Of a stretch of 64,000 nt of DNA, positions 12,579 to 22,758 are shown one piece after another. This DNA comes from Candidatus Latescibacterota bacterium (lineage in GTDB: Bacteria; Latescibacterota; UBA2968): positions 64,001-128,000 of the forward strand of contig OZ244960.1 of assembly GCA_965222605.1 (NCBI GenBank), written 5' to 3'. The notes below the pieces were generated by a model, which saw only the letters and a program-made list of their open reading frames with translations, made no database searches and was not told the origin of the DNA. The translations under genes were made by a program, and so were the position numbers. Each line of letters opens with the position of its first letter. Within the stretch, counting starts at the first letter, position 1.

Positions 12579-15500
12579 ATGAGCCTGAAGCATTTTTTTC
12601 GCACATCCCCCACGCAGCAACACACCTTGCTCCAATTGTCAAAGCAACACGTCTCTGCACACATTCACGATATTGAAACTGAATACTGTTTCAACGTACA
12701 AACGGACAGTCCGCTTTCCGCTGACCAGCAAAGCCGGCTCACCTATCTGTTATCTGAAACCTTTGAAGCAGATCAATTCGCAGAGCAGTCCTTTCTTACG
12801 GGACCTGGCACGATCCTCGAAGTGGGGCCGCGCATGAATTTTTCTACGGCTTGGTCCACAAATGCCACGGCAATATGCCACGCCTGTGGGATCACGCAAA
12901 TTTCGCGTATCGAACGGTCGCGACGTTACCTCATCAAACCCTCCCTGAGCCTGGATCAACAGAATATCTTTTTATCCCTCGTACACGACCGCATGACCGA
13001 ATGCCCGTACCCTCACTCCCTTACCTCCTTTAAATCCGATGCAAAACCAGAGCCCGTATTCGAGATTTCCCTCATAGAAAAAGGTCGCCGCGCCCTCGAA
13101 AAAATCAATCGCACCATGGGCCTGGCATTCGACGAATGGGACCTCAATTATTACACAGACCTATTCCTCGATCAGATCGGGCGCAACCCCACCAATGTCG
13201 AATGCTTTGACATTGCCCAATCCAACAGCGAACACTGCAGGCACTGGTTCTTCAAAGGCCGCCTCATCATTGATAGCGAAGAGATGCCCGATCACCTCAT
13301 CGCCATGATCCAATCGCCGCTCAAAGCCAATCCCAACAACAGCACCATAGCCTTCAAAGACAATTCCAGCGCCATTCGAGGGTATCCGATCCGCACCATT
13401 GTGCCCACCACTATCGGTAGCCCATCCCCATTTGCATTCTCAGACCGCACCTGGGACATCATCTTCACAGCGGAAACGCACAACTTCCCATCGGGCGTTG
13501 CCCCTTTTCCCGGTGCAGAAACAGGTACCGGTGGACGCATCAGAGATGTGCAAGCCACGGGCCGCGGCGCACTTGTGGTCGCGGGCACAGCGGCGTATTG
13601 CGTGGGCAATTTGTATATCCCCGGATACGATCTGCCCTGGGAAAACCCCGCATTTCAGTACCCCGATAACCTCGCCACGCCCTTGCAAATCGCAATTGAA
13701 GCCAGCAATGGGGCCTCAGATTACGGCAACAAATTCGGCGAACCCCTCATACAGGGTTACACGCGATCTTATGGCGCGCGCCTGCCCAATGGAGAACGCA
13801 GAGAATGGATCAAACCCATTATGTTTAGCGGTGGAATCGGTCAAATGGACGCGCGTCATACCAATAAAGAAAAACCCGCGCCCCAAATGCTCGTCACTAA
13901 GATCGGTGGCCCGGCCTATCGTATTGGCATGGGGGGGGGCGCTGCTTCGAGCATGGTACAGGGTGAAAATGAAGCCGAACTCGATTTTAATGCCGTGCAG
14001 CGCGGCGACGCAGAAATGGAACAAAAACTCAATCGCGTGATCCGCGCCTGTGTTGAACTCGGCGATCAAAACCCCATTGTCAGCATCCACGATCAGGGTG
14101 CTGGTGGCAACTGCAATGTCCTCAAAGAAATCGTTGAGCCAGCAGGTGCTCGCATCGATATTCGCGCTGTGCCCATTGGGGATGAAACCCTATCTGTGCT
14201 CGAAATCTGGGGCGCCGAATATCAGGAAAACAATGCCCTGCTTATCCGCCCCGAACACGCCCATCTCTTTGACGCCCTCTGCAAACGAGAAAAGGTCATC
14301 TATGCTTTTGTCGGCGAAGTGACCGGCGATGGACAGGTGGTTGTCTTCGATAGCAAAGACAATACCACACCCGTTGACCTCGACCTGGAAAAATTCCTCG
14401 GCGATATGCCACAAAAACCATTCAAACTCGACCGCTTTCCCATCTGCACAGAACCGCTCATTCTGCCCGAGAACCTGACCGTTGAAAAAGCACTCGACCG
14501 CGTGCTTCGCCTCGTCTCTGTTGGTTCCAAGCGATTTCTCACCAACAAAGTTGACCGCTGCGTGACCGGGCTTGTCGCACAACAGCAATGCGTGGGACCG
14601 ATCCAGCTAACCGCAGCGGATGTCGCCGTCATTGCACAAAGCCATTTTGGCACGACTGGTGCCGCTACAGCCATTGGCGAACAACCCATCAAGGGTCTCA
14701 TCGATCCTGCGGCAATGGGACGCCTGTGCGTGGGCGAAATGCTCACCAACATCGCCTGGGCACGCCTGAGTGCTATCGAAGACATCAAATGCTCTGGCAA
14801 CTGGATGTGGGCAGCCAAATTGCCCGGAGAAGGCGCGGCGCTTTACGATGCAGCCCGCGCACTCACAGATATTCTACACGAATTGGGCATTGCCATAGAT
14901 GGCGGTAAGGACAGTCTATCGATGGCCGCAATCGCGCCGGGAGATGATGGCGATGAAACCGTCAAAGCACCCGGCACACTTGTCATATCGGGCTATGTCA
15001 CCAGCCCGGATATCACGCAGACCGTTACGCCCGACTTAAAATATCCCGACGAAGGTATCATACTTTACGTCGATCTCGGCGCAGACAAACATCGCCTCGG
15101 CGGATCTTCTCTCGCCCATGTGTATGAGCAACTCGGCAATGAGTCGCCAGATGTCGATGATCCCGCCCTGCTCAAACGCGCAATCGGCGCACTTCAATCC
15201 TGCATCGCAAAAAGTTATATTGCCTCGGGACACGACCGCAGCGATGGTGGCCTCCTCACCGCGCTTTTGGAAATGGCTTTTGCCGGCAACTGTGGTATTG
15301 AAATCGATCTTCAAACCCGTGCCAATGCGATCCCCGCGCTCTTTTCCGAAGAGCTCGGCCTCGTCTTTGAAGTGCGTTCAAAAAATCTGATGATCGTGCG
15401 AGAAATTTTTGAAAAAGCTGCCGTGCCTATCCAAACCATTGGAAAAGCGACATCCAGCCCCGACATCCAAATTTCTGTCAACAATCAGTGCGTTCTCAAA

Positions 15501-16484
15501 ACTCCCATGCCCGAATTGCGCGACCTGTGGGAAGCCACGAGTTTCCAGCTCGAACGCCGGCAAACCAATCCATTCTGCGTCGCGCAAGAAGAGGCTTTTC
15601 TACACGCGCGCACAGGTCCCAAATTCACCGTGCCTTTCACCCCAATGCCCACACCGCCCGCCATTCTCAATGCCAGTAGCAAACCCGCAGTCGCCATCGT
15701 GCGAGAAGAGGGCAGCAATGGAGACCGCGAAATGACCTCTGCGTTTTTTGCAGCGGGATTTGAACCCTGGGATGTGACCACCAGCGATCTCCTATCTGGC
15801 ACCATCGCGCTCGACCACCAATTCAGAGGAGTCGTATTTGTGGGCGGATTCAGCTATGCCGATGTACTCGACTCGGCCAAAGGCTGGGCTGGTGTGATTC
15901 GCTTCAACGACGGCCTTCGCACTCAGTTTGATGCCTTCTACAACCGCCCCGATACCTTCAGCCTCGGCGTGTGCAATGGCTGCCAGCTCATGGCCCTGCT
16001 CGGCTGGGTTCCGTTCCCCGGCCTTGCCAATACGGCACAACCCCGGTTTATTCGCAACGAATCCGCGCGTTTTGAATCCCGCTTTTCCACTGTGCAAATT
16101 CAGGACAGTCCAGCGATTATGTTCAGAAACATGGCCGGGGCATCTCTCGGCGTGTGGGTCGCGCACGGCGAAGGCCGCGCATTTTTCCCTCGCGCAGACG
16201 TGCTTGACCGCGTCATAGACGAAAATCTTTGCCCCGTGCGCTATGTCGATGACAATAATACCGCGACCGAAGCCTATCCCTTTAACCCAAATGGTTCGCC
16301 ACACGGTATTGCCAGCCTTTGCTCCCCTGATGGACGCCACCTCGCCATGATGCCCCATCCCGAACGCACCTTTCTCAAGTGGCAATGGGGCTATATGCCA
16401 AACCACTGGAAACGCGATCTTCAGGCTTCTCCGTGGCTTCAACTATTCCAAAACGCCCGCGAGTGGTGCGAGGGTAAAACGTAA
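12579..16484 (+). CDS. purL: Phosphoribosylformylglycinamidine synthase, large single-chain type
   Basis: SEHCRHWFF, ETHNFP, HDQGAGG, DGGKDS; glutaminase domain GVCNGCQ and MPHPER; 1301 aa. Confidence 0.97.
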   Translation: MSLKHFFRTSPTQQHTLLQLSKQHVSAHIHDIETEYCFNVQTDSPLSADQQSRLTYLLSETFEADQFAEQSFLTGPGTILEVGPRMNFSTAWSTNATAICHACGITQISRIERSRRYLIKPSLSLDQQNIFLSLVHDRMTECPYPHSLTSFKSDAKPEPVFEISLIEKGRRALEKINRTMGLAFDEWDLNYYTDLFLDQIGRNPTNVECFDIAQSNSEHCRHWFFKGRLIIDSEEMPDHLIAMIQSPLKANPNNSTIAFKDNSSAIRGYPIRTIVPTTIGSPSPFAFSDRTWDIIFTAETHNFPSGVAPFPGAETGTGGRIRDVQATGRGALVVAGTAAYCVGNLYIPGYDLPWENPAFQYPDNLATPLQIAIEASNGASDYGNKFGEPLIQGYTRSYGARLPNGERREWIKPIMFSGGIGQMDARHTNKEKPAPQMLVTKIGGPAYRIGMGGGAASSMVQGENEAELDFNAVQRGDAEMEQKLNRVIRACVELGDQNPIVSIHDQGAGGNCNVLKEIVEPAGARIDIRAVPIGDETLSVLEIWGAEYQENNALLIRPEHAHLFDALCKREKVIYAFVGEVTGDGQVVVFDSKDNTTPVDLDLEKFLGDMPQKPFKLDRFPICTEPLILPENLTVEKALDRVLRLVSVGSKRFLTNKVDRCVTGLVAQQQCVGPIQLTAADVAVIAQSHFGTTGAATAIGEQPIKGLIDPAAMGRLCVGEMLTNIAWARLSAIEDIKCSGNWMWAAKLPGEGAALYDAARALTDILHELGIAIDGGKDSLSMAAIAPGDDGDETVKAPGTLVISGYVTSPDITQTVTPDLKYPDEGIILYVDLGADKHRLGGSSLAHVYEQLGNESPDVDDPALLKRAIGALQSCIAKSYIASGHDRSDGGLLTALLEMAFAGNCGIEIDLQTRANAIPALFSEELGLVFEVRSKNLMIVREIFEKAAVPIQTIGKATSSPDIQISVNNQCVLKTPMPELRDLWEATSFQLERRQTNPFCVAQEEAFLHARTGPKFTVPFTPMPTPPAILNASSKPAVAIVREEGSNGDREMTSAFFAAGFEPWDVTTSDLLSGTIALDHQFRGVVFVGGFSYADVLDSAKGWAGVIRFNDGLRTQFDAFYNRPDTFSLGVCNGCQLMALLGWVPFPGLANTAQPRFIRNESARFESRFSTVQIQDSPAIMFRNMAGASLGVWVAHGEGRAFFPRADVLDRVIDENLCPVRYVDDNNTATEAYPFNPNGSPHGIASLCSPDGRHLAMMPHPERTFLKWQWGYMPNHWKRDLQASPWLQLFQNAREWCEGKT

Positions 16485-16501
16485 GACGGGAGACGTAAGA
16501 T

Positions 16502-16525
16502 GTAGGGGCGAGGCATGCCTCGCCC
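16502..16525 (+). repeat. GTAG-type REP-like palindrome
   Basis: GTAG-GGGCGAGGCA/TGCCTCGCCC. Confidence 0.65.
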
Positions 16526-16578
16526 ATTTTAAGATACAAGAGGGGAATTCAAGCCCTACCTCTGTCGTCATCACTACA

Positions 16579-16619
16579 AAAAGACACGCCCCGCATTTTC
16601 CTGCTGGGGCGTGTCTTTT
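16579..16619. terminator. Bidirectional terminator between purL and phytase
   Basis: AAAAGACACGCCCC...GGGGCGTGTCTTTT. Confidence 0.8.
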
Positions 16620-16668
16620 GCAATTCGATGGACCTCGGGCGGCCGAAAAGATAGGGGGAAAATAGCCG

Positions 16669-17751
16669 TTATCGAGGGCCGCAGTCGAGGCCGAAGGCCG
16701 CGATGATCTCCGCCATGTCGAAGGCGGCGACGTTGCCGTCGTCATGCACGGCGTAGAAGGCACCCCGGGTGAAGGGGCCGAAGCTGCGGCCAGTGAGGGC
16801 GACGCCGTCGGTGTTGATGGTGACGGCTCCTGAGAAGGTGCCCCGGATGGCGAGATTCTCCCGGTCAAAAATCAGGAAGCGGTTTTTCACATAATCCTGG
16901 TCGGTGGCGAACCAGTAGCCGCGGCCTTCCGCGCATTCCAGCAGTGCCACGCCTTCCGGTTGGCGGTAGAAGACCCCGTCTCCGACGAGTTGGCCGGTGA
17001 ACCGCCCCTCGAGGTCATAGACCTTGATCACCCCTTCCGACTCATCGGCAACCAGCATCCTGCCGAGAAGGGGATCCATCGCGACCGACTCAACCTTCCT
17101 CAGGTAACCGTCCTCCGTGGTGTCACCAAAGGCACCGACGTACTCCCCAGTTAGCTGTGTCTCCGACACTTGCAGACGAAATCGGCGCAGACGCTCTCCC
17201 ATCTCCGTAGCTGGCGCCGAGGACGATTTCGGTTCATAGCTGTCGGTGACCCAGACGTCCCAGCCGCCTTCACCATGGGCCGCGGCAATTCCGTACGGCG
17301 CGCGTAGCACTTCGGCTCCGAGAAGGGCGACCGGCTCCAAGTCCGGCAGCGACAGGGCCTGCAGGCGATGATTGTCGCGCTCGACGACGATGACGAAGTC
17401 ACCGATCACGACGATGCCGTTGGGGCGCTGAAACTGACCCGCCTCGGTACCCGGACCGCCGACCCGGCGGATCAGCTTTCCGTTGACCGCGTCGTGAACG
17501 AGCAGTTGGTGCGCCGACTTGGCGGTGGAGAGAAGCCAGTGGCGGCCTCCGGGGCCGTGCCAGACCGCCGGAGAGTCGATGTCGTCCGCTTCCCGGCGCT
17601 CGGTGAGAAAGGTCTCGACGATAGTGACATCCGCATCGGGCGGCGTCCGAAGCAACGACCACGGAATGCCCTGACACTGGACAAGAAGCAGAGCCACCCC
17701 CAGATAGAGGGAGGCCAAGAAGATTCGCCACACAGAATTACAACAGATCAT
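16669..17751 (-). CDS. Beta-propeller phytase-like protein (possible lipoprotein)
   Basis: DDIDSPAVW, TAK, QPEGVAL, NTDGV and AVHDD motifs; signal peptide ending in Cys; visibly more GC-rich than its flanks. Confidence 0.8.
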   Translation of the reverse strand: MICCNSVWRIFLASLYLGVALLLVQCQGIPWSLLRTPPDADVTIVETFLTERREADDIDSPAVWHGPGGRHWLLSTAKSAHQLLVHDAVNGKLIRRVGGPGTEAGQFQRPNGIVVIGDFVIVVERDNHRLQALSLPDLEPVALLGAEVLRAPYGIAAAHGEGGWDVWVTDSYEPKSSSAPATEMGERLRRFRLQVSETQLTGEYVGAFGDTTEDGYLRKVESVAMDPLLGRMLVADESEGVIKVYDLEGRFTGQLVGDGVFYRQPEGVALLECAEGRGYWFATDQDYVKNRFLIFDRENLAIRGTFSGAVTINTDGVALTGRSFGPFTRGAFYAVHDDGNVAAFDMAEIIAAFGLDCGPR

Positions 17752-17872
17752 TTCTCTTTTCCTTTGCTATGGGATCGGTGAGATCCGTCGAACATTAAAC
17801 GAAAACCCCGCATAAACTATTTCAATCCTTTGGTATAATATAATTGAGGGATGTGCATAAATCAAGTCCAGA

Positions 17873-18515
17873 CAGCCTTTATGCTGCTGTGCTCAACTCG
17901 ACCAAAGGCTGGGCTGGTGTGATTCGCTTCAACGATGGCCTTCGCGCCCAGTTTGATGCCTTCTACAACCGCCCCGATACCTTCAGCCTCGGCGTATGCA
18001 ATGGCTGCCAGCTCATGGCCCTGCTCGGCTGGGTTCCGTTCCCCGGCCTTGCCAATACGGCACAACCCCGGTTTATTCGCAACGAATCCGCGCGTTTTGA
18101 ATCCCGCTTTTCCACTGTGCAAATTCAGGACAGTCCAGCAATTATGTTCAAAAACATGGCTGGCGCATCTCTCGGCGTGTGGGTCGCGCACGGCGAAGGC
18201 CGCGCATTTTTTCCCCGCGCAGACGTACTCGACCGCGTCATAGGCGAAAATCTCTGCCCCGTGCGCTATGTCGATGACAATAATACCGCGACCGAAGCCT
18301 ACCCCTTTAACCCAAATGGTTCGCCACACGGTATTGCTGGCCTTTGCTCCCCCGATGGTCGCCACCTCGCCATGATGCCCCACCCCGAACGCACCTTTCT
18401 CAAGTGGCAATGGGGTTATATGCCAAACCATTGGAAACGCGATCTTCAGGCCTCTCCCTGGCTTCAACTATTCCAAAACGCCCGCGAGTGGTGCGAAAAA
18501 ACGGGTGAGATGTAA
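17873..18515 (+). pseudogene. purL: Duplicated 3' end of purL (partial glutaminase domain)
   Basis: 17896-18496 matches 15871-16471 (offset 2025; ~25 differences in ~600 nt by manual count); no credible own start. Confidence 0.9.
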
Positions 18516-18712: not shown

Positions 18713-21607
18713 CTACGGAACAACATCAATTCGAAAATCGTTGCCGACACGAGTCCCCATGAATCCATTCAAGTTGAAGCTACTGACGCAAATCTGGTCA
18801 CTACCGAAGAGGGGAGTATAAACGAAGCACCCGTCACCAATATTTCTAAACTCCCCACCGCTGACCGTACAGCTCTGGTTGGGACTTACGACCATCCCTG
18901 CCTGGCAGCGGCCAAGGCTCCCACCGCCGCTACTGCCACTGCTGACCGTGACGCGTACGCCGGTTGAGCAGTTGTTATTGGTATCACTCTCACCGCTGAC
19001 ACTCTCGACACACGCACCATAGTAATATGTGCCCGCACTCGATGGCGCATTCAAACTGATTGATTCAGTACTGCTGCCAGAAGCTGAAAGACCATTTACC
19101 GTGTCGGTACCTACTTCCGTATCGCTGGTAGAAATCGTTGCGTCTGGCGAGCGGTAATAGCGCAAGGTCGTAGAAGCAGAAGAACCCCTGCCCTGGTTGC
19201 GAACCGTCGCACTCAGTGTGAACGATTGCCCTGTGGTCAGGGTGCTATTACTTACTGAAGGCGATTCTACAATCAGGTCTGGACTGCTACTACCACCGCC
19301 ATCACCACTTCCTGATTGCCCGGAACTGGTGTACACATAGACCTTCTCATCATCCGGATCAACCACATAGAATCGGTCGTTGGCATACGTGATGCCTTCC
19401 CGATAATTATTATCTCTATGCAGATCGAAGTCTGCACTTGCATCACGCTGCCCGGAACTCGTGTACACATAGACCTTATCATCCCACCAATCAACCACAT
19501 AGAATCGGTCGTTGGCATACGTGATACCTTCCGGATAACCATTGTCTCTATGCAGATGGAAGGCTGCACTTGCATCATGCTGCCCAGAACTCGTGTACGC
19601 ATAGACATCATCACCCGAATCAACCACATAGAATCGGTCGTTGGCATACGTGATGCCTACCGGACGACCATTGTCGCTATGCAGATCGAAGTCTGCACTT
19701 GCATCACGCTGCCCGGAACTCGTGTACACATAGACCTTATCATCGGTCCCATCAACCACATAGAATCGGTCGTTGGCATACGTGATACCATACGCTATAC
19801 TGTTGTTGCTATCCAGATCGAAGTCTGCACTTGCATCATGCTGCCCAGAACTCGTGTACGCATAGACCTTATCATCAACCACATAGAGTCGGTTGTTGGC
19901 ATACGTGATGCCTGCTGCTCTCCTGTTGTTGCTATCCAGATAGAAAGATGTGCTCGGCGGCGTCTCACCACCACTTCCTGATTGCCCGGAACTCGTGTAC
20001 ACATAGACCTTATCAAGCCAATCAACCACATAGAATCGGTTGTTGGCATACGTGATGCCTCCCGCTATAATGTTGTTGCTATCCAGATAGAAGTCTGCAC
20101 TTGCATCATGCTGCCCGGAACTCGTGTACACATAGACCTTCTCATCGGTCCGATCAACCACATAGAGTCGGTCGTTGGCATACGTGATACCACCCGGACG
20201 CTTATTCTCTCTGTGCAGATCGAAGTCTGCACTTGCATCACGCTGCCCGGAACTCGTGTACGCATAGACCTTATCATAAAACCCATCAACCACATAGAAC
20301 CGGTCGTTGGCATACGTGATACCATACGCTATAAAGATGTTGCCCAGATCGAAGTCTGCACTTGCATCACGCTGCCCGGAACTCGTGTACGCATAGACCT
20401 TATCATCATCTACATCAGCCACATAGAATCGGTTGTTGGCATACGTGATACCACCCGGATCACCATTGTCTCTATGCAGATCGAAGTCTGCACTTGCATC
20501 ACGCTGCCCGGAACTCGTGTACGCATAGACCTTATCATCCCCCCCCTCAGTAAACAATTCTCCCTGATCAACCACATAGAATCGGTTGTTGGCATACGTG
20601 ATGCCTTCCGGATAATCATTGCCTCTATGCAAATCGAAAGGGGTGCTCGTTGGCGGCGTCCCACTGCCACCGCTACTACCGCCGTTAGAAGGCGACACTT
20701 GCTGACCAAATCTACTGCTAAATATCAGAAAATCGGAAAATCCAATTGCGCCATCGCTATCCAGGTCATATTTGGCTTCATACCTTCCATCCCCTTGACG
20801 TGATCCAAACTGACCTGCAAACGCCAAAAAGTCAGCAAAGCCAACCGTGCCATCGCCATCAAAATCGGGAGAGATCATGGCATTGAACGAGATCGCATTT
20901 GTTGTTGTGATTACGTCGCTCAATACCGCGCTTTCAGCAAGCGTAACCTCCTTAATACCAAGGGTAAATTCCTTATTCGTAACATCCGCTGCGGTGGAAA
21001 ACTCAGCCCTTGCCAGAAAACCGGAAGATGGCAAAGTAACAGGCGTAGTAGCCGCAAAATTCGCGCCCGTCGCTTCTGGAATAGAAAGGGCAAAAGCACT
21101 ATTCTCGACCTTGTCAAGCGTCAAAACAGACGCATCAAAATCAAATAGGATTTTCACACCACTCAGCGGTGTAGTCACACCCTTTGCGAAAACTTCAACA
21201 GCGATCTTCGTGCCCTGCCCAGAAACAACGCCTGATGTGACGCCATCATCTATCTGATTGCCCGCCTCGCCATCGGTAATCAGGTCAAGTGACAGAACAG
21301 CATTGGCATTGGAGCCAACAGCAATTTTTGCGCGGCGTTCAAGTTCCGCATCCAATGTCGCCCTTTCTTTACGCGCTTTTTTCTCTGCGAGGTGCTCAAG
21401 CCACTGCCTTTCAGCCCGGTCAGCGACAATTTTTGTGCGGCGTGCGGAATCCGTGTCTAAATTGCTGCCATTGACACTCATATCAGGCGATAGTGTTGCA
21501 TTGACATTGGGATCAGGAGCGTCAGCAGCGGCGTGCCGACGACCCACCAGGACCAACAATGCCAGCACAATCATCAGCAAGCTCGCTGACAACATATGTT
21601 TGCCCAT
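18713..21607 (-). CDS. Secreted modular protein: cohesin-like domain, dockerin-like EF-hand pair, 10 beta-propeller (NHL-like) repeats, CARDB-like domain, Cys-rich tail
   Basis: Signal peptide; DFDGDGTVGFADFL and DLDSDGAIGFSDFL; GITYANxRFYVVD repeats; PDLIV...TVRNQG...ESDTNNN. Confidence 0.85.
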   Translation of the reverse strand: MGKHMLSASLLMIVLALLVLVGRRHAAADAPDPNVNATLSPDMSVNGSNLDTDSARRTKIVADRAERQWLEHLAEKKARKERATLDAELERRAKIAVGSNANAVLSLDLITDGEAGNQIDDGVTSGVVSGQGTKIAVEVFAKGVTTPLSGVKILFDFDASVLTLDKVENSAFALSIPEATGANFAATTPVTLPSSGFLARAEFSTAADVTNKEFTLGIKEVTLAESAVLSDVITTTNAISFNAMISPDFDGDGTVGFADFLAFAGQFGSRQGDGRYEAKYDLDSDGAIGFSDFLIFSSRFGQQVSPSNGGSSGGSGTPPTSTPFDLHRGNDYPEGITYANNRFYVVDQGELFTEGGDDKVYAYTSSGQRDASADFDLHRDNGDPGGITYANNRFYVADVDDDKVYAYTSSGQRDASADFDLGNIFIAYGITYANDRFYVVDGFYDKVYAYTSSGQRDASADFDLHRENKRPGGITYANDRLYVVDRTDEKVYVYTSSGQHDASADFYLDSNNIIAGGITYANNRFYVVDWLDKVYVYTSSGQSGSGGETPPSTSFYLDSNNRRAAGITYANNRLYVVDDKVYAYTSSGQHDASADFDLDSNNSIAYGITYANDRFYVVDGTDDKVYVYTSSGQRDASADFDLHSDNGRPVGITYANDRFYVVDSGDDVYAYTSSGQHDASAAFHLHRDNGYPEGITYANDRFYVVDWWDDKVYVYTSSGQRDASADFDLHRDNNYREGITYANDRFYVVDPDDEKVYVYTSSGQSGSGDGGGSSSPDLIVESPSVSNSTLTTGQSFTLSATVRNQGRGSSASTTLRYYRSPDATISTSDTEVGTDTVNGLSASGSSTESISLNAPSSAGTYYYGACVESVSGESDTNNNCSTGVRVTVSSGSSGGGSLGRCQAGMVVSPNQSCTVSGGEFRNIGDGCFVYTPLFGSDQICVSSFNLNGFMGTRVGNDFRIDVVP
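19316..20638 (-). repeat. Intragenic tandem array: 2 x 5 repeats of ~132 nt
   Basis: Constant blocks ATCACGTATGCCAAC and TACACGAGTTC.GGGCAGC.TGATGCAAGTGCAG recur; the two blocks are separated by an SGSGGETPPSTS linker. Confidence 0.95.
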
Positions 21608-21723: not shown

Positions 21724-22530
21724 TTACTTCAGCAACATCATGCGCTGAACCTGAGAAAAATCGGCCACTGACATGCGATAAATATAAATCCCACTGGCTA
21801 CTTGCTTGCCAAATTCATCCGTACCATCCCAAACGACCGAGTGAAAACCCGCATCCATTGACTCTCGGACTAAAGTGCGAACTTCCTGCCCGAGCAGATT
21901 GTAGATCACCAGTTGGACGTCACCGGCTTCTGGCAACCGATAGTCTATCGTTGTGGAGGGGTTAAAAGGATTCGGGACATTTTGCCCAAGAGCGTAATCT
22001 TTGGGCATGGTCTTGAAAGTGCCAATTTCAATATTGGTAATGGCATCAATACCACCAACCAAATCAACCATCACACCGTCGAAAATCTGAAAATCAGAGG
22101 CAAGAGGCGTCTGTGTGGTTTTAAACGTAAACTCGACCAGAGCGCCATCGCCACTGACCGCCTGGCCATCGACCTTCATCGCACCAACAGCCACTTGCCC
22201 GGGCGTCTTGTTAGACGCGAGAAATAGCGCGGGCTGCCCACTGTTCGCATCGAGCAGATTTTGATCGACCTGGCGTGCTTCGACAAACTCATACTTGGAT
22301 TGATCGTACTGCAGCACAAAACCGTAACCCTTCAATTTCTGCGCGTGATTGACAGCAATCTGCAACTTCAGAACACCATCTTCGGCAACAATATTTTGCG
22401 TGCGTTGCGGCACCAGACTTGCCAGGCTATTTTCGCCGCCCGTAAACTCTATACCCTGTGTCAGAAGTCCAGCAATGGCCGATCCAACCAGACCCAGACC
22501 CAAACCTGCAGCAACAATTAAACGCTTCAT
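21724..22530 (-). CDS. Secreted cohesin-like protein with FlgD-Ig/T9SS-like C-terminal domain
   Basis: AGGAGG RBS, signal peptide, LKGYGFVLQYD...GDGALVEFTF, C-terminal QNVPNPFNPSTTI...WDGTD...ASGIYIYRM...MMLLK. Confidence 0.8.
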   Translation of the reverse strand: MKRLIVAAGLGLGLVGSAIAGLLTQGIEFTGGENSLASLVPQRTQNIVAEDGVLKLQIAVNHAQKLKGYGFVLQYDQSKYEFVEARQVDQNLLDANSGQPALFLASNKTPGQVAVGAMKVDGQAVSGDGALVEFTFKTTQTPLASDFQIFDGVMVDLVGGIDAITNIEIGTFKTMPKDYALGQNVPNPFNPSTTIDYRLPEAGDVQLVIYNLLGQEVRTLVRESMDAGFHSVVWDGTDEFGKQVASGIYIYRMSVADFSQVQRMMLLK

Positions 22531-22758
22531 AGCACTTCCTCCTGTTGAAGAATGTTCAGGGAACATTTAAGGAACTTACTGTGTCGCAATAGCTTATGAC
22601 GCCTATTTTTAAGGATAATTACTTGCTAATCAAAGCTTGCTACCACCTACAAGTTCCTTTCATACATAACCCCATGCGGGGTCAGATGCTGATAAGGTAC
22701 CCACCGAAACGGGTCAAGTCCAAGCCTAAATACGCCACCAAAATGGGGAACTCCAATC

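Follow-up and report, generated by a model that had tools for sequence, protein, structure and literature searches.

In a window of 64,000 nucleotides from the genome of a Candidatus Latescibacterota bacterium (contig OZ244960.1; all coordinates given below are positions in this window) we analysed a gene on the minus strand whose protein product, P0001, contains ten closely similar beta-propeller blades. We found that the blades form two propellers of five blades each, that their scaffold is nearly constant from blade to blade, and that two loops per blade differ in every copy. Both loops are predicted to lie on the same face of the propeller. For the protein as a whole we favour a function in recognition or adhesion, in which a conserved scaffold would carry a binding face that is diversified by recombination in the germline. 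We hold this interpretation to be rather probable, although well short of certain.

The ten repeats, arranged as two times five, had been proposed in an earlier note made from the letters of this DNA, and the translation of the open reading frame (ORF, Table 1) confirms them at this place. Tandem Repeats Finder located an array at 19317-20539 with a period of 132, 9.3 copies, 78% matches and a score of 1289; whole units match each other at 78-82% of their DNA. The units comprise 41-51 residues each (about 44), start with F[DYH]L and follow the pattern F-D-L, loop 1, G-I-T-Y-A-N-[ND]-R-F-Y-V-V-D, loop 2, D-K-V-Y-[AV]-Y-T-S-S-G-Q-R-D-A-S-A-D. Successive GITYAN anchors are spaced by 51, 43, 44, 44, 49, 41, 44, 43 and 44 residues. 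Between units 5 and 6 lies the linker SGSGGETPPSTS, and a Gly/Ser linker comes after unit 10. Loop 1 has the motif x-x-x-N-x-x-P-x with two semi-conserved residues, Asn at position 7 and Pro or Ala at position 10, and the length of loop 2 ranges from 0 to 11 residues. The strings given in the earlier note for loop 1 and loop 2, ten of each, agree with the translation, and no two versions of a loop are the same.

To describe the contrast between scaffold and loops we counted differences over all 45 blade pairs of the array. Framework bases differ between blades at 197 of 3618 positions, which corresponds to 94.6% identity, whereas 425 of 1053 bases differ in loop 1 (about 60% identity) and 149 of 300 in loop 2 (about 50% identity). 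Different amino acids are encoded by 113 of the 1206 framework codon pairs and by 308 of the 451 codon pairs of both loops. Where two blades share an amino acid they mostly use the same codon as well (1009 of 1093 cases in the framework, 108 of 142 in the loops). The framework had been described as nearly identical even at synonymous sites. With 94.6% DNA identity this holds in substance, but the identity is not perfect: the proportion of synonymous differences (pS) is 0.10, mainly owing to an alternation of GGC and GGT at the Gly preceding ITYAN.

Near-identical frameworks could in principle be produced by collapsed or chimeric assembly of repeats, an explanation to which we give next to no weight. 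Mis-assembly is possible in the orthologue of the related genome G006, a fragmented assembly in which two-blade units are exactly duplicated and one stretch is masked. The genome of the window, in contrast, consists of one contig of 6.34 Mb (98.7% complete). Contigs of sequencing run X7, possibly the source sample, show no difference from the gene in the pieces listed. Two strain orthologues from independent assemblies, P0002 (four member sequences, two contigs) and P0003 (a 224-kb contig), have the same ten-blade layout, and the reading frame of the window gene runs uninterrupted through all ten blades.

We modelled propeller A with AlphaFold2 (AF2) from an alignment of 17 sequences, namely propellers A and B and 15 five-blade units of related genomes. 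The model has five blades with a mean predicted local distance difference test (pLDDT) value of 89.9 and a predicted template modelling (TM) score of 0.89. Each repeat supplies the strands PEGITYA (a), RFYVVD (b) and KVYAYT (c), followed by a short strand FD (d) after the SSGQRDASAD turn; the N-terminal FD strand completes blade 5. According to the secondary structure of the model loop 1 is the d-a connection and loop 2 the b-c hairpin. In a four-stranded antiparallel blade the d-a and b-c connections lie on one face of the propeller and the a-b and c-d connections on the opposite one. Given these positions in the model, propeller topology would place both variable loops on one face, and the NN turn together with the SSGQRDASAD segment would form the constant opposite face. 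Each propeller is thus predicted to be ringed on this face by ten loops, all different, which together would make up a single binding surface. The assignment of the variable segments to the d-a and b-c loops of one face, already put forward in the earlier note, agrees with the confident five-bladed model, the face itself following from topology.

Searching structure databases with this model by Foldseek, we obtained the best E-values (2.5e-11 to 1e-10) for six-bladed NHL domains, those of Thin, TRIM2/3/71, Brat and Lin41, with TM scores by query of 0.58-0.65. The best two-way TM scores (0.69-0.73) belonged to the glutaminyl cyclases 3nol, 2faw, 2iwa and 3mbr and to YjiK (3qqz). Sequence identity to the matched structures was 12-19%. 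Plant and bacterial glutaminyl cyclases are five-bladed. In Pfam only weak propeller families cover the repeats; DUF5128 (30.6 bits, cut-off 22.9) and DUF6242 (30.1 bits, cut-off 29) match P0001 above their cut-offs. The NHL repeat family PF01436 was not among the 17 Pfam families at E ≤1 for P0001, and the precomputed Pfam lists of many homologues, including P0002, do contain it. Independent support for five blades per unit comes from the blade counts of 232 proteins of the family, from which we cut 2564 blades with a blade hidden Markov model of 44 match positions: the counts peak at five (48 proteins), ten (98) and 15 (13), and 166 of the 232 proteins have a multiple of five.

The structural matches also raise the question whether the propellers are enzymes in the manner of glutaminyl cyclases or virginiamycin B lyase, with variable loops that would only tune substrate access. 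Besides the cyclases the lyase structures 2z2n and 2qc5 were matched, and Pfam gave matches to Vgb_lyase (29.8 bits, cut-off 50) and Glu_cyclase_2 (18 bits, cut-off 22.3). Both Pfam matches fall under their cut-offs, however, and the identity to the structures is low, as stated above. Residues conserved throughout the family are scaffold residues, and the face that bears the active site in such enzymes is the hypervariable face here. Moreover, propeller enzymes have blade-specific catalytic residues, whereas the blades of P0001 are near-identical copies. We consider an enzymatic function of this kind very improbable.

In order to see whether the scaffold-loop contrast is a property of the family we turned to its other members. 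A word-indexed search returned 621 proteins at E ≤1e-3 among 8000 scored candidates, and an exhaustive HMMER search returned 2684 cluster representatives, of which 424 fall below 1e-30; some exceed 4000 aa in length. Of the 232 proteins with extracted blades 11 were dropped because they had fewer than four near-complete blades. In all of the remaining 221 proteins the loops are less conserved than the framework within the protein, with median identities of 0.31 and 0.68, respectively. The framework identity reaches at least 0.85 in 29 of the 221; the window protein has 0.86 in the framework and 0.32 in the loops. Comparing identity within arrays to identity between unrelated arrays, we noticed opposite behaviour of the two kinds of positions. 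The most variable positions, 5, 8, 9, 11, 25 and 26, have identities of 0.13-0.34 within arrays and 0.08-0.14 between them, and at positions 9, 11, 25 and 26 blades of one array are hardly more alike (0.13-0.14) than blades of unrelated proteins (0.08-0.10). Framework positions 14-21 and 34-38, on the other hand, have 0.47-0.75 within arrays versus 0.17-0.54 between; at positions 15, 34 and 38 the values are 0.68, 0.53 and 0.54 within versus 0.24, 0.17 and 0.25 between. This pattern is the signature of concerted evolution of the scaffold from which the loops are exempt.

The residues conserved across the family are F1, L3, G12, I13, V22, D24, Y33, G37 and D44 of the scaffold, and Asn7 and Pro10 within loop 1. 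At the six most variable positions (10004 residues from 1691 blades) Trp is enriched 3.2-fold, Ser 1.9-fold and Arg 1.7-fold; Lys, Leu, Val, Met and Cys are depleted. This composition would fit a binding surface better than a drifting loop, which we regard as soft evidence. At position 25, where the b-c loop begins, 213 of about 1690 blades have Trp. An exposed ring of Trp on the variable face might indicate sugar binding.

Traces of recombination are seen among the blades of the window array. A four-gamete test of its informative biallelic sites found every one of the four combinations in 125 of 276 pairs, among them pairs of framework codons 12, 18 and 39, which are 18-63 nt apart. Mosaic blades are found between proteins as well: blade 2 of P0063 combines loop 1 of window blade 4 (HRENKRPG) with loop 2 of window blade 2 (VDDD), blade 9 of P0003 repeats the second half of its own blade 7, and the loop 2 WIRE is common to P0002 and P0063. 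The number of blades varies, from five in P0063 to more than ten in the G006 orthologue with its exactly duplicated two-blade units, though that assembly is fragmented, with part of it masked. Together with the four-gamete violations, the mosaic blades indicate intragenic recombination over short tracts. The repeat shuffling postulated in the earlier note is therefore borne out in the form of ordinary intragenic recombination, and the sub-motifs that were said to recur in mixed combinations are indeed reassorted, both between blades and between strains.

Recurring sub-motifs would likewise be expected if the loops were diversified by a programme acting within the population, be it a retroelement similar to diversity-generating retroelements (DGRs), conversion from cassettes as in pilS or vls, or site-specific shuffling. 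In favour of such a programme one may further cite the distribution of variants in sequencing runs: among the 40 of 143 between-sample variant positions that are listed, 18 fall in the array, and 17 of these in loop codons and one in the framework; of the 434 array codons outside the linkers, 122 belong to loops. This distribution is in line with the differences between strains described below and contributes little beyond them. The run contigs (Logan contigs of X7, X9, X11 and X12) cover the array in pieces of 90-260 nt with depths far above those of the flanks; they mix paralogues and other organisms and are uninformative on variation within a population. A search for reverse transcriptase (PF00078) gave no match in the whole 6.34-Mb genome; run on 14 control genomes, it picked out the three expected positives. 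The absence of reverse transcriptase, formerly noted for the window, thus extends to the entire genome. A 393-nt query of three blades found the array itself (81-100%) and a full-gene paralogue at 5.30 Mb (74-76%), and no donor cassettes in the genome. The check for paralogous or silent repeat copies that the earlier note had suggested accordingly yielded no near-identical copy, the paralogue being the only further one. Substitutions in the loops involve all four bases, and the two strain orthologues keep a blade-by-blade correspondence with P0001 at 70-80% loop identity, which argues for stable inheritance. Programmed diversification is in our view scarcely probable. A DGR was rejected as a mechanism, there being no PF00078 match and no near-identical template repeat, and silent donor cassettes were rejected in view of the same best DNA match outside the array. 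The antibody- or VLR-like generator (VLR, variable lymphocyte receptor) suggested at the outset thus finds no support, there being neither donor cassettes nor reverse transcriptase.

Changes between strains were assessed with the orthologues P0002 (964 aa) and P0003 (839 aa), both compared with P0001 as proteins (Table 2). The nearest relatives at the DNA level among genome contigs are no closer than 67%, and the array of G006, the nearest genome, is partly masked and has no one-to-one correspondence with that of the window. P0002 is 91% identical to P0001 over the repeat region. Altogether 20-30% of loop residues differ between strains, in comparison to 3% in the framework and 2-6% in the other domains. 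The earlier note had set its reading against arrays that are identical across strains, and P0002 and P0003 do differ from P0001, with the differences concentrated in the loops. We also observed that P0003 is without the whole CARDB domain (a gap of 115 residues) and retains the Cys-rich tail, a loss of a module at strain level.

Table 2. Amino-acid differences from P0001 in two strain orthologues (differences/residues compared)
Part of protein	P0002	P0003
N-terminal part	19/323	19/323
Framework	9/312	9/312
Loop 1	16/79	22/79
Loop 2	13/43	12/43
C-terminal part	6/189	4/189

A rough rate can be attached to these differences. Runs X11 and X12 contain a P0002-like allele, as eight of nine listed nonsynonymous changes in codons 51-232 give the P0002 residue. 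Over 817 bases of the N-terminal part, one P0002-like contig and the window sequence differ at 26. As the P0002 protein accounts for 18 amino-acid differences there, at most about 8 changes are left as synonymous, and the synonymous rate (dS) is roughly 0.04. In the loops 29 amino-acid differences in 122 codons separate P0002 from P0001, so that the nonsynonymous rate (dN) would be at least about 0.10. This comparison, which uses the difference count of one contig and has a wide error, suggests that loop replacement may outrun the synonymous clock; conversion events that replace several residues at once would inflate the loop dN relative to the dS estimate.

We then analysed selection in 117 nearest-neighbour blade pairs from 20 arrays by the Nei-Gojobori method (Table 3). 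Neighbours were defined by their framework bases, and duplicate loci were dropped. In the nine young arrays, those with a framework pS below 0.1, the ratio of nonsynonymous to synonymous differences (pN/pS) in the loops was 1.36, 1.38, 1.06, 1.00 (window), 1.93, 0.86, 7.87, 2.66 and 4.74, that is above 1 in seven of nine. Considering codons that differ by a single step, we counted 289 synonymous and 381 nonsynonymous differences in the framework, 43.1% synonymous versus 22.2% expected. Relative to the framework the loops have an excess of nonsynonymous single-step changes (odds ratio 2.84, p 1e-12). The purifying selection seen in the scaffold is clearly absent from the loops. Their nonsynonymous excess is modest and depends on the method.

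Table 3. Proportions of synonymous (pS) and nonsynonymous (pN) differences between nearest-neighbour blades
Class of positions	pS	pN
Framework	0.161	0.080
Loops	0.379	0.372
Eight most variable positions	0.386	0.460

These counts can also be read in a neutral way. Unconstrained loops would drift, recent amplification and short-tract conversion would reset the framework, diverged loops would block heteroduplex formation, and no selection for diversity would be needed. Several observations weigh against our preferred interpretation, and the first of them speak for the neutral one. Pooled over all pairs, the loops have a pN/pS of 0.98, a value that rises to 1.19 when the eight most variable positions are taken alone. 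The single-step differences in loop codons, 74 synonymous and 277 nonsynonymous, are 21.1% synonymous versus 19.8% expected under neutrality, a neutral-like outcome. In the window array the loop pS equals the loop pN (both 0.40) and is about ten times the framework pS (0.03-0.10), as if the loops were older than the homogenised framework; this equality also fits neutral loops with conversion confined to the framework. The four-gamete violations over 18-63 nt in the framework imply the very short conversion tracts that the neutral account calls for. In addition, the arrays are not independent, as four come from one genome and one (L024) is an orthologue of the window array, and the formal evidence for positive selection is weak. 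Some related arrays contain blades with identical loops (three blades in L018), so that loop diversity is not universal. The clustering of the loops on one face is derived from secondary structure and topology and not from a mapped surface, and the habitat discussed below is read solely from the titles of relatives and from source names.

Other findings speak against drift. The enrichment of Trp and Arg at the hypervariable positions would be unusual for drifting exposed loops. Most of the young arrays exceed a pN/pS of 1, up to 7.9, and the rough dS between strains lies below the loop dN, with the wide error given above. Furthermore, the same two places per blade are variable across thousands of family proteins in several phyla. 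Weighing both sides we consider the neutral explanation fairly unlikely. The selection claimed in the earlier note stands in part: it is backed by the ratios of the young arrays, but the pooled ratio and the single-step test look neutral.

Returning to the interpretation of a selected binding face, we propose the following course of events. Duplication and loss of blades together with gene conversion over short tracts would keep the scaffold uniform within an array. The loops would be reassorted and not homogenised, changing several-fold faster between strains than the rest of the protein. Most likely diversity at the binding face is favoured, which would keep the loops diverse. For their escape from homogenisation, selection for diversity and conversion blocked by mismatches are both compatible with the data. 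The diversification would be evolutionary, in the germline, as in the WD40 repeats of fungal NOD-like receptors (NLRs), and not a programmed mutagenesis. The protein itself would most likely be an extracellular adhesin or recognition module that takes part in surface assemblies by means of its cohesin and dockerin modules.

The coordinates of these modules are given in Table 1. P0001 consists, in this order, of a signal peptide, a cohesin, a dockerin, propeller A, propeller B, a CARDB domain and a Cys-rich tail.

Table 1. Features of the propeller gene (positions in the 64,000-nt window)
Feature	Position	Strand	Basis
Whole gene P0001, 964 aa	18713..21607 (incl. stop codon)	-	ORF list and translation
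Probable Sec signal peptide, aa 1-28 (hydrophobic core, AAA-D)	21524..21607	-	Read from translation
Cohesin-fold domain, about aa 100-245	20873..21310	-	AF2 model and Foldseek
Dockerin module, about aa 246-305, two DxDxDG calcium loops	20693..20872	-	phmmer
Propeller A, blades 1-5, aa 324-545	19973..20638	-	Translation, AF2, Foldseek
Inter-propeller linker SGSGGETPPSTS, aa 546-554	19946..19972	-	Translation; pLDDT <50 at model C-terminus
Propeller B, blades 6-10, aa 555-766	19310..19945	-	Aligns 71% to propeller A
CARDB domain, aa 775-882	18962..19285	-	Pfam PF07705, E 2.3e-13, 50.6 bits (cut-off 22.7)
Cys-rich C-terminal domain, aa 890-964, about 75 residues	18716..18940	-	Translation

Since its N-terminus resembles a Sec signal peptide, P0001 is probably secreted. 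An AF2 model of aa 88-312 from a nine-sequence alignment has a pLDDT of 79.4 and two helices in the dockerin part. Nearly all of its top 30 Foldseek rows are cohesin modules (E 5e-6 to 2e-4, TM scores by target of 0.5-0.67); the Pfam scan of P0001 gave no match to Cohesin, and an Atlas search with the N-terminal domain gave a lead only (score 0.88). Residues 245-305 match solved dockerins by phmmer (2y3n_B, E 2.1e-6; 4wi0_B, E 6e-5), and Pfam Dockerin_1 matches P0001 with an E of 0.0079, under its cut-off. For the Cys-rich C-terminal domain we found no Pfam or NCBIfam match and no usable Atlas hit. The NCBIfam matches of P0001 to LIC12708_fam and CIS12_fam lie far under the cut-offs, and an NTPase domain is absent from P0001 in the Pfam and NCBIfam scans.

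Parts of the protein are widely shared. Residues 765-964, comprising CARDB and the tail, have copies of 70-83% identity on many differently built paralogues in related genomes, and the cohesin-dockerin part and the CARDB/C-terminal part each occur in dozens of genes in all 31 related genomes searched. The upstream neighbour at 21724-22566 on the minus strand encodes a protein of 280 aa with a Cohesin domain (E 5.8e-5) and a C-terminus similar to FlgD-Ig or Por_Secre_tail of type IX secretion systems (T9SS). The dockerin of P0001 may have its partner in this protein. The occurrence of cohesin and dockerin in one chain, the neighbouring cohesin gene and the dozens of cohesin-dockerin paralogues suggest that the propeller protein may assemble into surface complexes through these modules.

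On the other side of the gene lies a full-length purL (phosphoribosylformylglycinamidine (FGAM) synthase, 1301 aa) at 12579-16484. Within the region 12579-18515 it is followed by an NHL-like gene on the minus strand (16669-17751), in a stretch of higher G+C content (0.588), and then by a duplicate of the 3' end of purL (223 aa, 17844-18515) that is 97% identical over 206 aa to the C-terminus of the full gene. In the related genome G006 the propeller gene directly adjoins an intact purL 3' end. The duplicate beyond the NHL-like gene and the arrangement in G006 suggest that this gene entered by insertion, duplicating about 0.65 kb of its target.

Concerning the distribution of the family, the source names of relatives are metagenome-assembled genomes (MAGs) of Poribacteria, Gammaproteobacteria, Acidobacteria and Rhodospirillaceae. 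Among the species-representative genomes, those titled as Candidatus Latescibacterota MAGs have the closest loci (52-68% identity), and more distant loci lie in genomes titled Terriglobia/Bryobacterales, Gammaproteobacteria, Dehalococcoidia and Poribacteria. Three loci were found on metagenome contigs (best 71-74% identical), and none of 47 candidate stretches on viral contigs encodes a relative of the propeller family. The window's genome has three other propeller loci only, one of which is the paralogue at 5.30 Mb (60-67% identical; L011:5006-7957). Its modules are ordered dockerin, CARDB, ten blades, CARDB and five blades, with a TAA directly after the 15th blade, and its blades are less uniform (30% framework amino-acid differences). 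Other states of the array were noticed in related genomes: L018 in G001 with its three blades of identical loops, L016 in G028 with four blades only, and L024 in G006, where a TAG directly follows the duplicated two-blade units. These odd states may partly be due to assembly errors in fragmented MAGs.

Poribacteria are sponge symbionts, as stated in PMC3909097, and PMC12993501 lists NHL among the classes of eukaryotic-like proteins (ELPs) of sponge-associated Latescibacterota. Given the relatives in Poribacteria and Latescibacterota MAGs and this literature, a sponge-associated habitat of the uncultured host bacterium is likely. Sequencing runs X1-X6, some of them labelled sponge metagenome, had shares of 0.06-0.15 and provide no evidence of habitat. 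By analogy with NHL-type ELPs of sponge symbionts a host-facing role of the propeller protein is plausible. A wider proposal would see in the family a recognition repertoire of variable propellers that sponge-associated bacteria share horizontally, with loops under selection, reshuffling by conversion, surface assembly through cohesin and dockerin, and recognition of host, phage or neighbours; we regard this as possible but doubtful.

Sponge symbionts of several phyla carry many eukaryotic-like repeat proteins whose targets are largely unknown. Members of the family described here would present a binding face that is defined and can be predicted: ten loops carried by a rigid scaffold of five blades. 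Between strains this face changes, with the remainder of the protein staying constant. Given this split into scaffold and loops, specificity could be tested directly by exchanging loops and screening for binding, and the consensus-like five-bladed scaffold may be of use in the engineering of binders.

Near-identical tandem repeats in which a few variable positions set the specificity, and whose arrays evolve by recombination, are known from TAL effectors, from the leucine-rich repeats of lamprey VLRs and from the zinc fingers of PRDM9. P0001 resembles them in the combination of a constant scaffold with variable positions, and differs in fold and ligands. VLRs are assembled somatically from donor cassettes, unlike P0001, in whose genome no donor cassettes were found. 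Among propellers of known structure the NHL domains of TRIM2/3/71, Brat, Lin41 and Thin have the same blade fold, but they have six blades instead of five, share 12-19% identity with P0001, and their blades are not near-identical. The five-bladed glutaminyl cyclases and YjiK are similar in fold and likewise lack near-identical blades. ELP9 and other NHL-type ELPs of sponge symbionts are comparable as propeller proteins, and relatives of P0001 occur in MAGs of Poribacteria, Latescibacterota, Gammaproteobacteria and Acidobacteriota; recombinant ELP9 altered the phagocytic processing of bacteria by sponges, according to PMC13747020. In a full-text search, which some papers lie outside, we found no description of five-blade units, of a constant scaffold with hypervariable loops or of a cohesin-dockerin context in extracellular propellers of sponge symbionts or other bacteria.

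The closest known analogue would be the WD40 repeats of fungal NLRs, such as the HNWD proteins of Podospora (het-d, het-e, het-r; related literature in PMC1805685 and PMC2873952). For WD40, ANK and TPR repeats of fungal NLRs PMC4986451 describes high internal conservation, concerted evolution, polymorphism of repeat number and positive selection at positions of the interaction surface. P0001 and the WD40 repeats described there have in common near-identical blades of 42-44 residues, concerted evolution, shuffling and exchange of repeats and variation in their number, as well as few hypervariable positions per repeat on the interaction face, which for P0001 is assigned by topology. High internal conservation is defined in the same source as repeats more than 85% identical over at least 100 aa; the scaffold of P0001 lies above this value (0.86), and blades including their loops lie below it. 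The fungal proteins are intracellular STAND NTPases (NACHT/NB-ARC) with seven-bladed propellers, in contrast to P0001, which is bacterial, predicted to be secreted and has no NTPase, and which combines five-bladed NHL-like propellers and loops of variable length with cohesin, dockerin and CARDB. Positive selection was found at four positions in the fungal repeats, whereas the pooled loop pN/pS of P0001 is the near-neutral value given above. P0001 shares the logic of the fungal NLR repeats and is not a member of them. If our interpretation is true, concerted evolution of a constant scaffold with variable loops would extend from intracellular immune receptors of fungi to secreted proteins of bacteria. 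Under the wider and more doubtful proposal of a shared recognition repertoire, the variable propellers would do outside the bacterial cell what the WD40 sensor domains of NLRs do in fungi.

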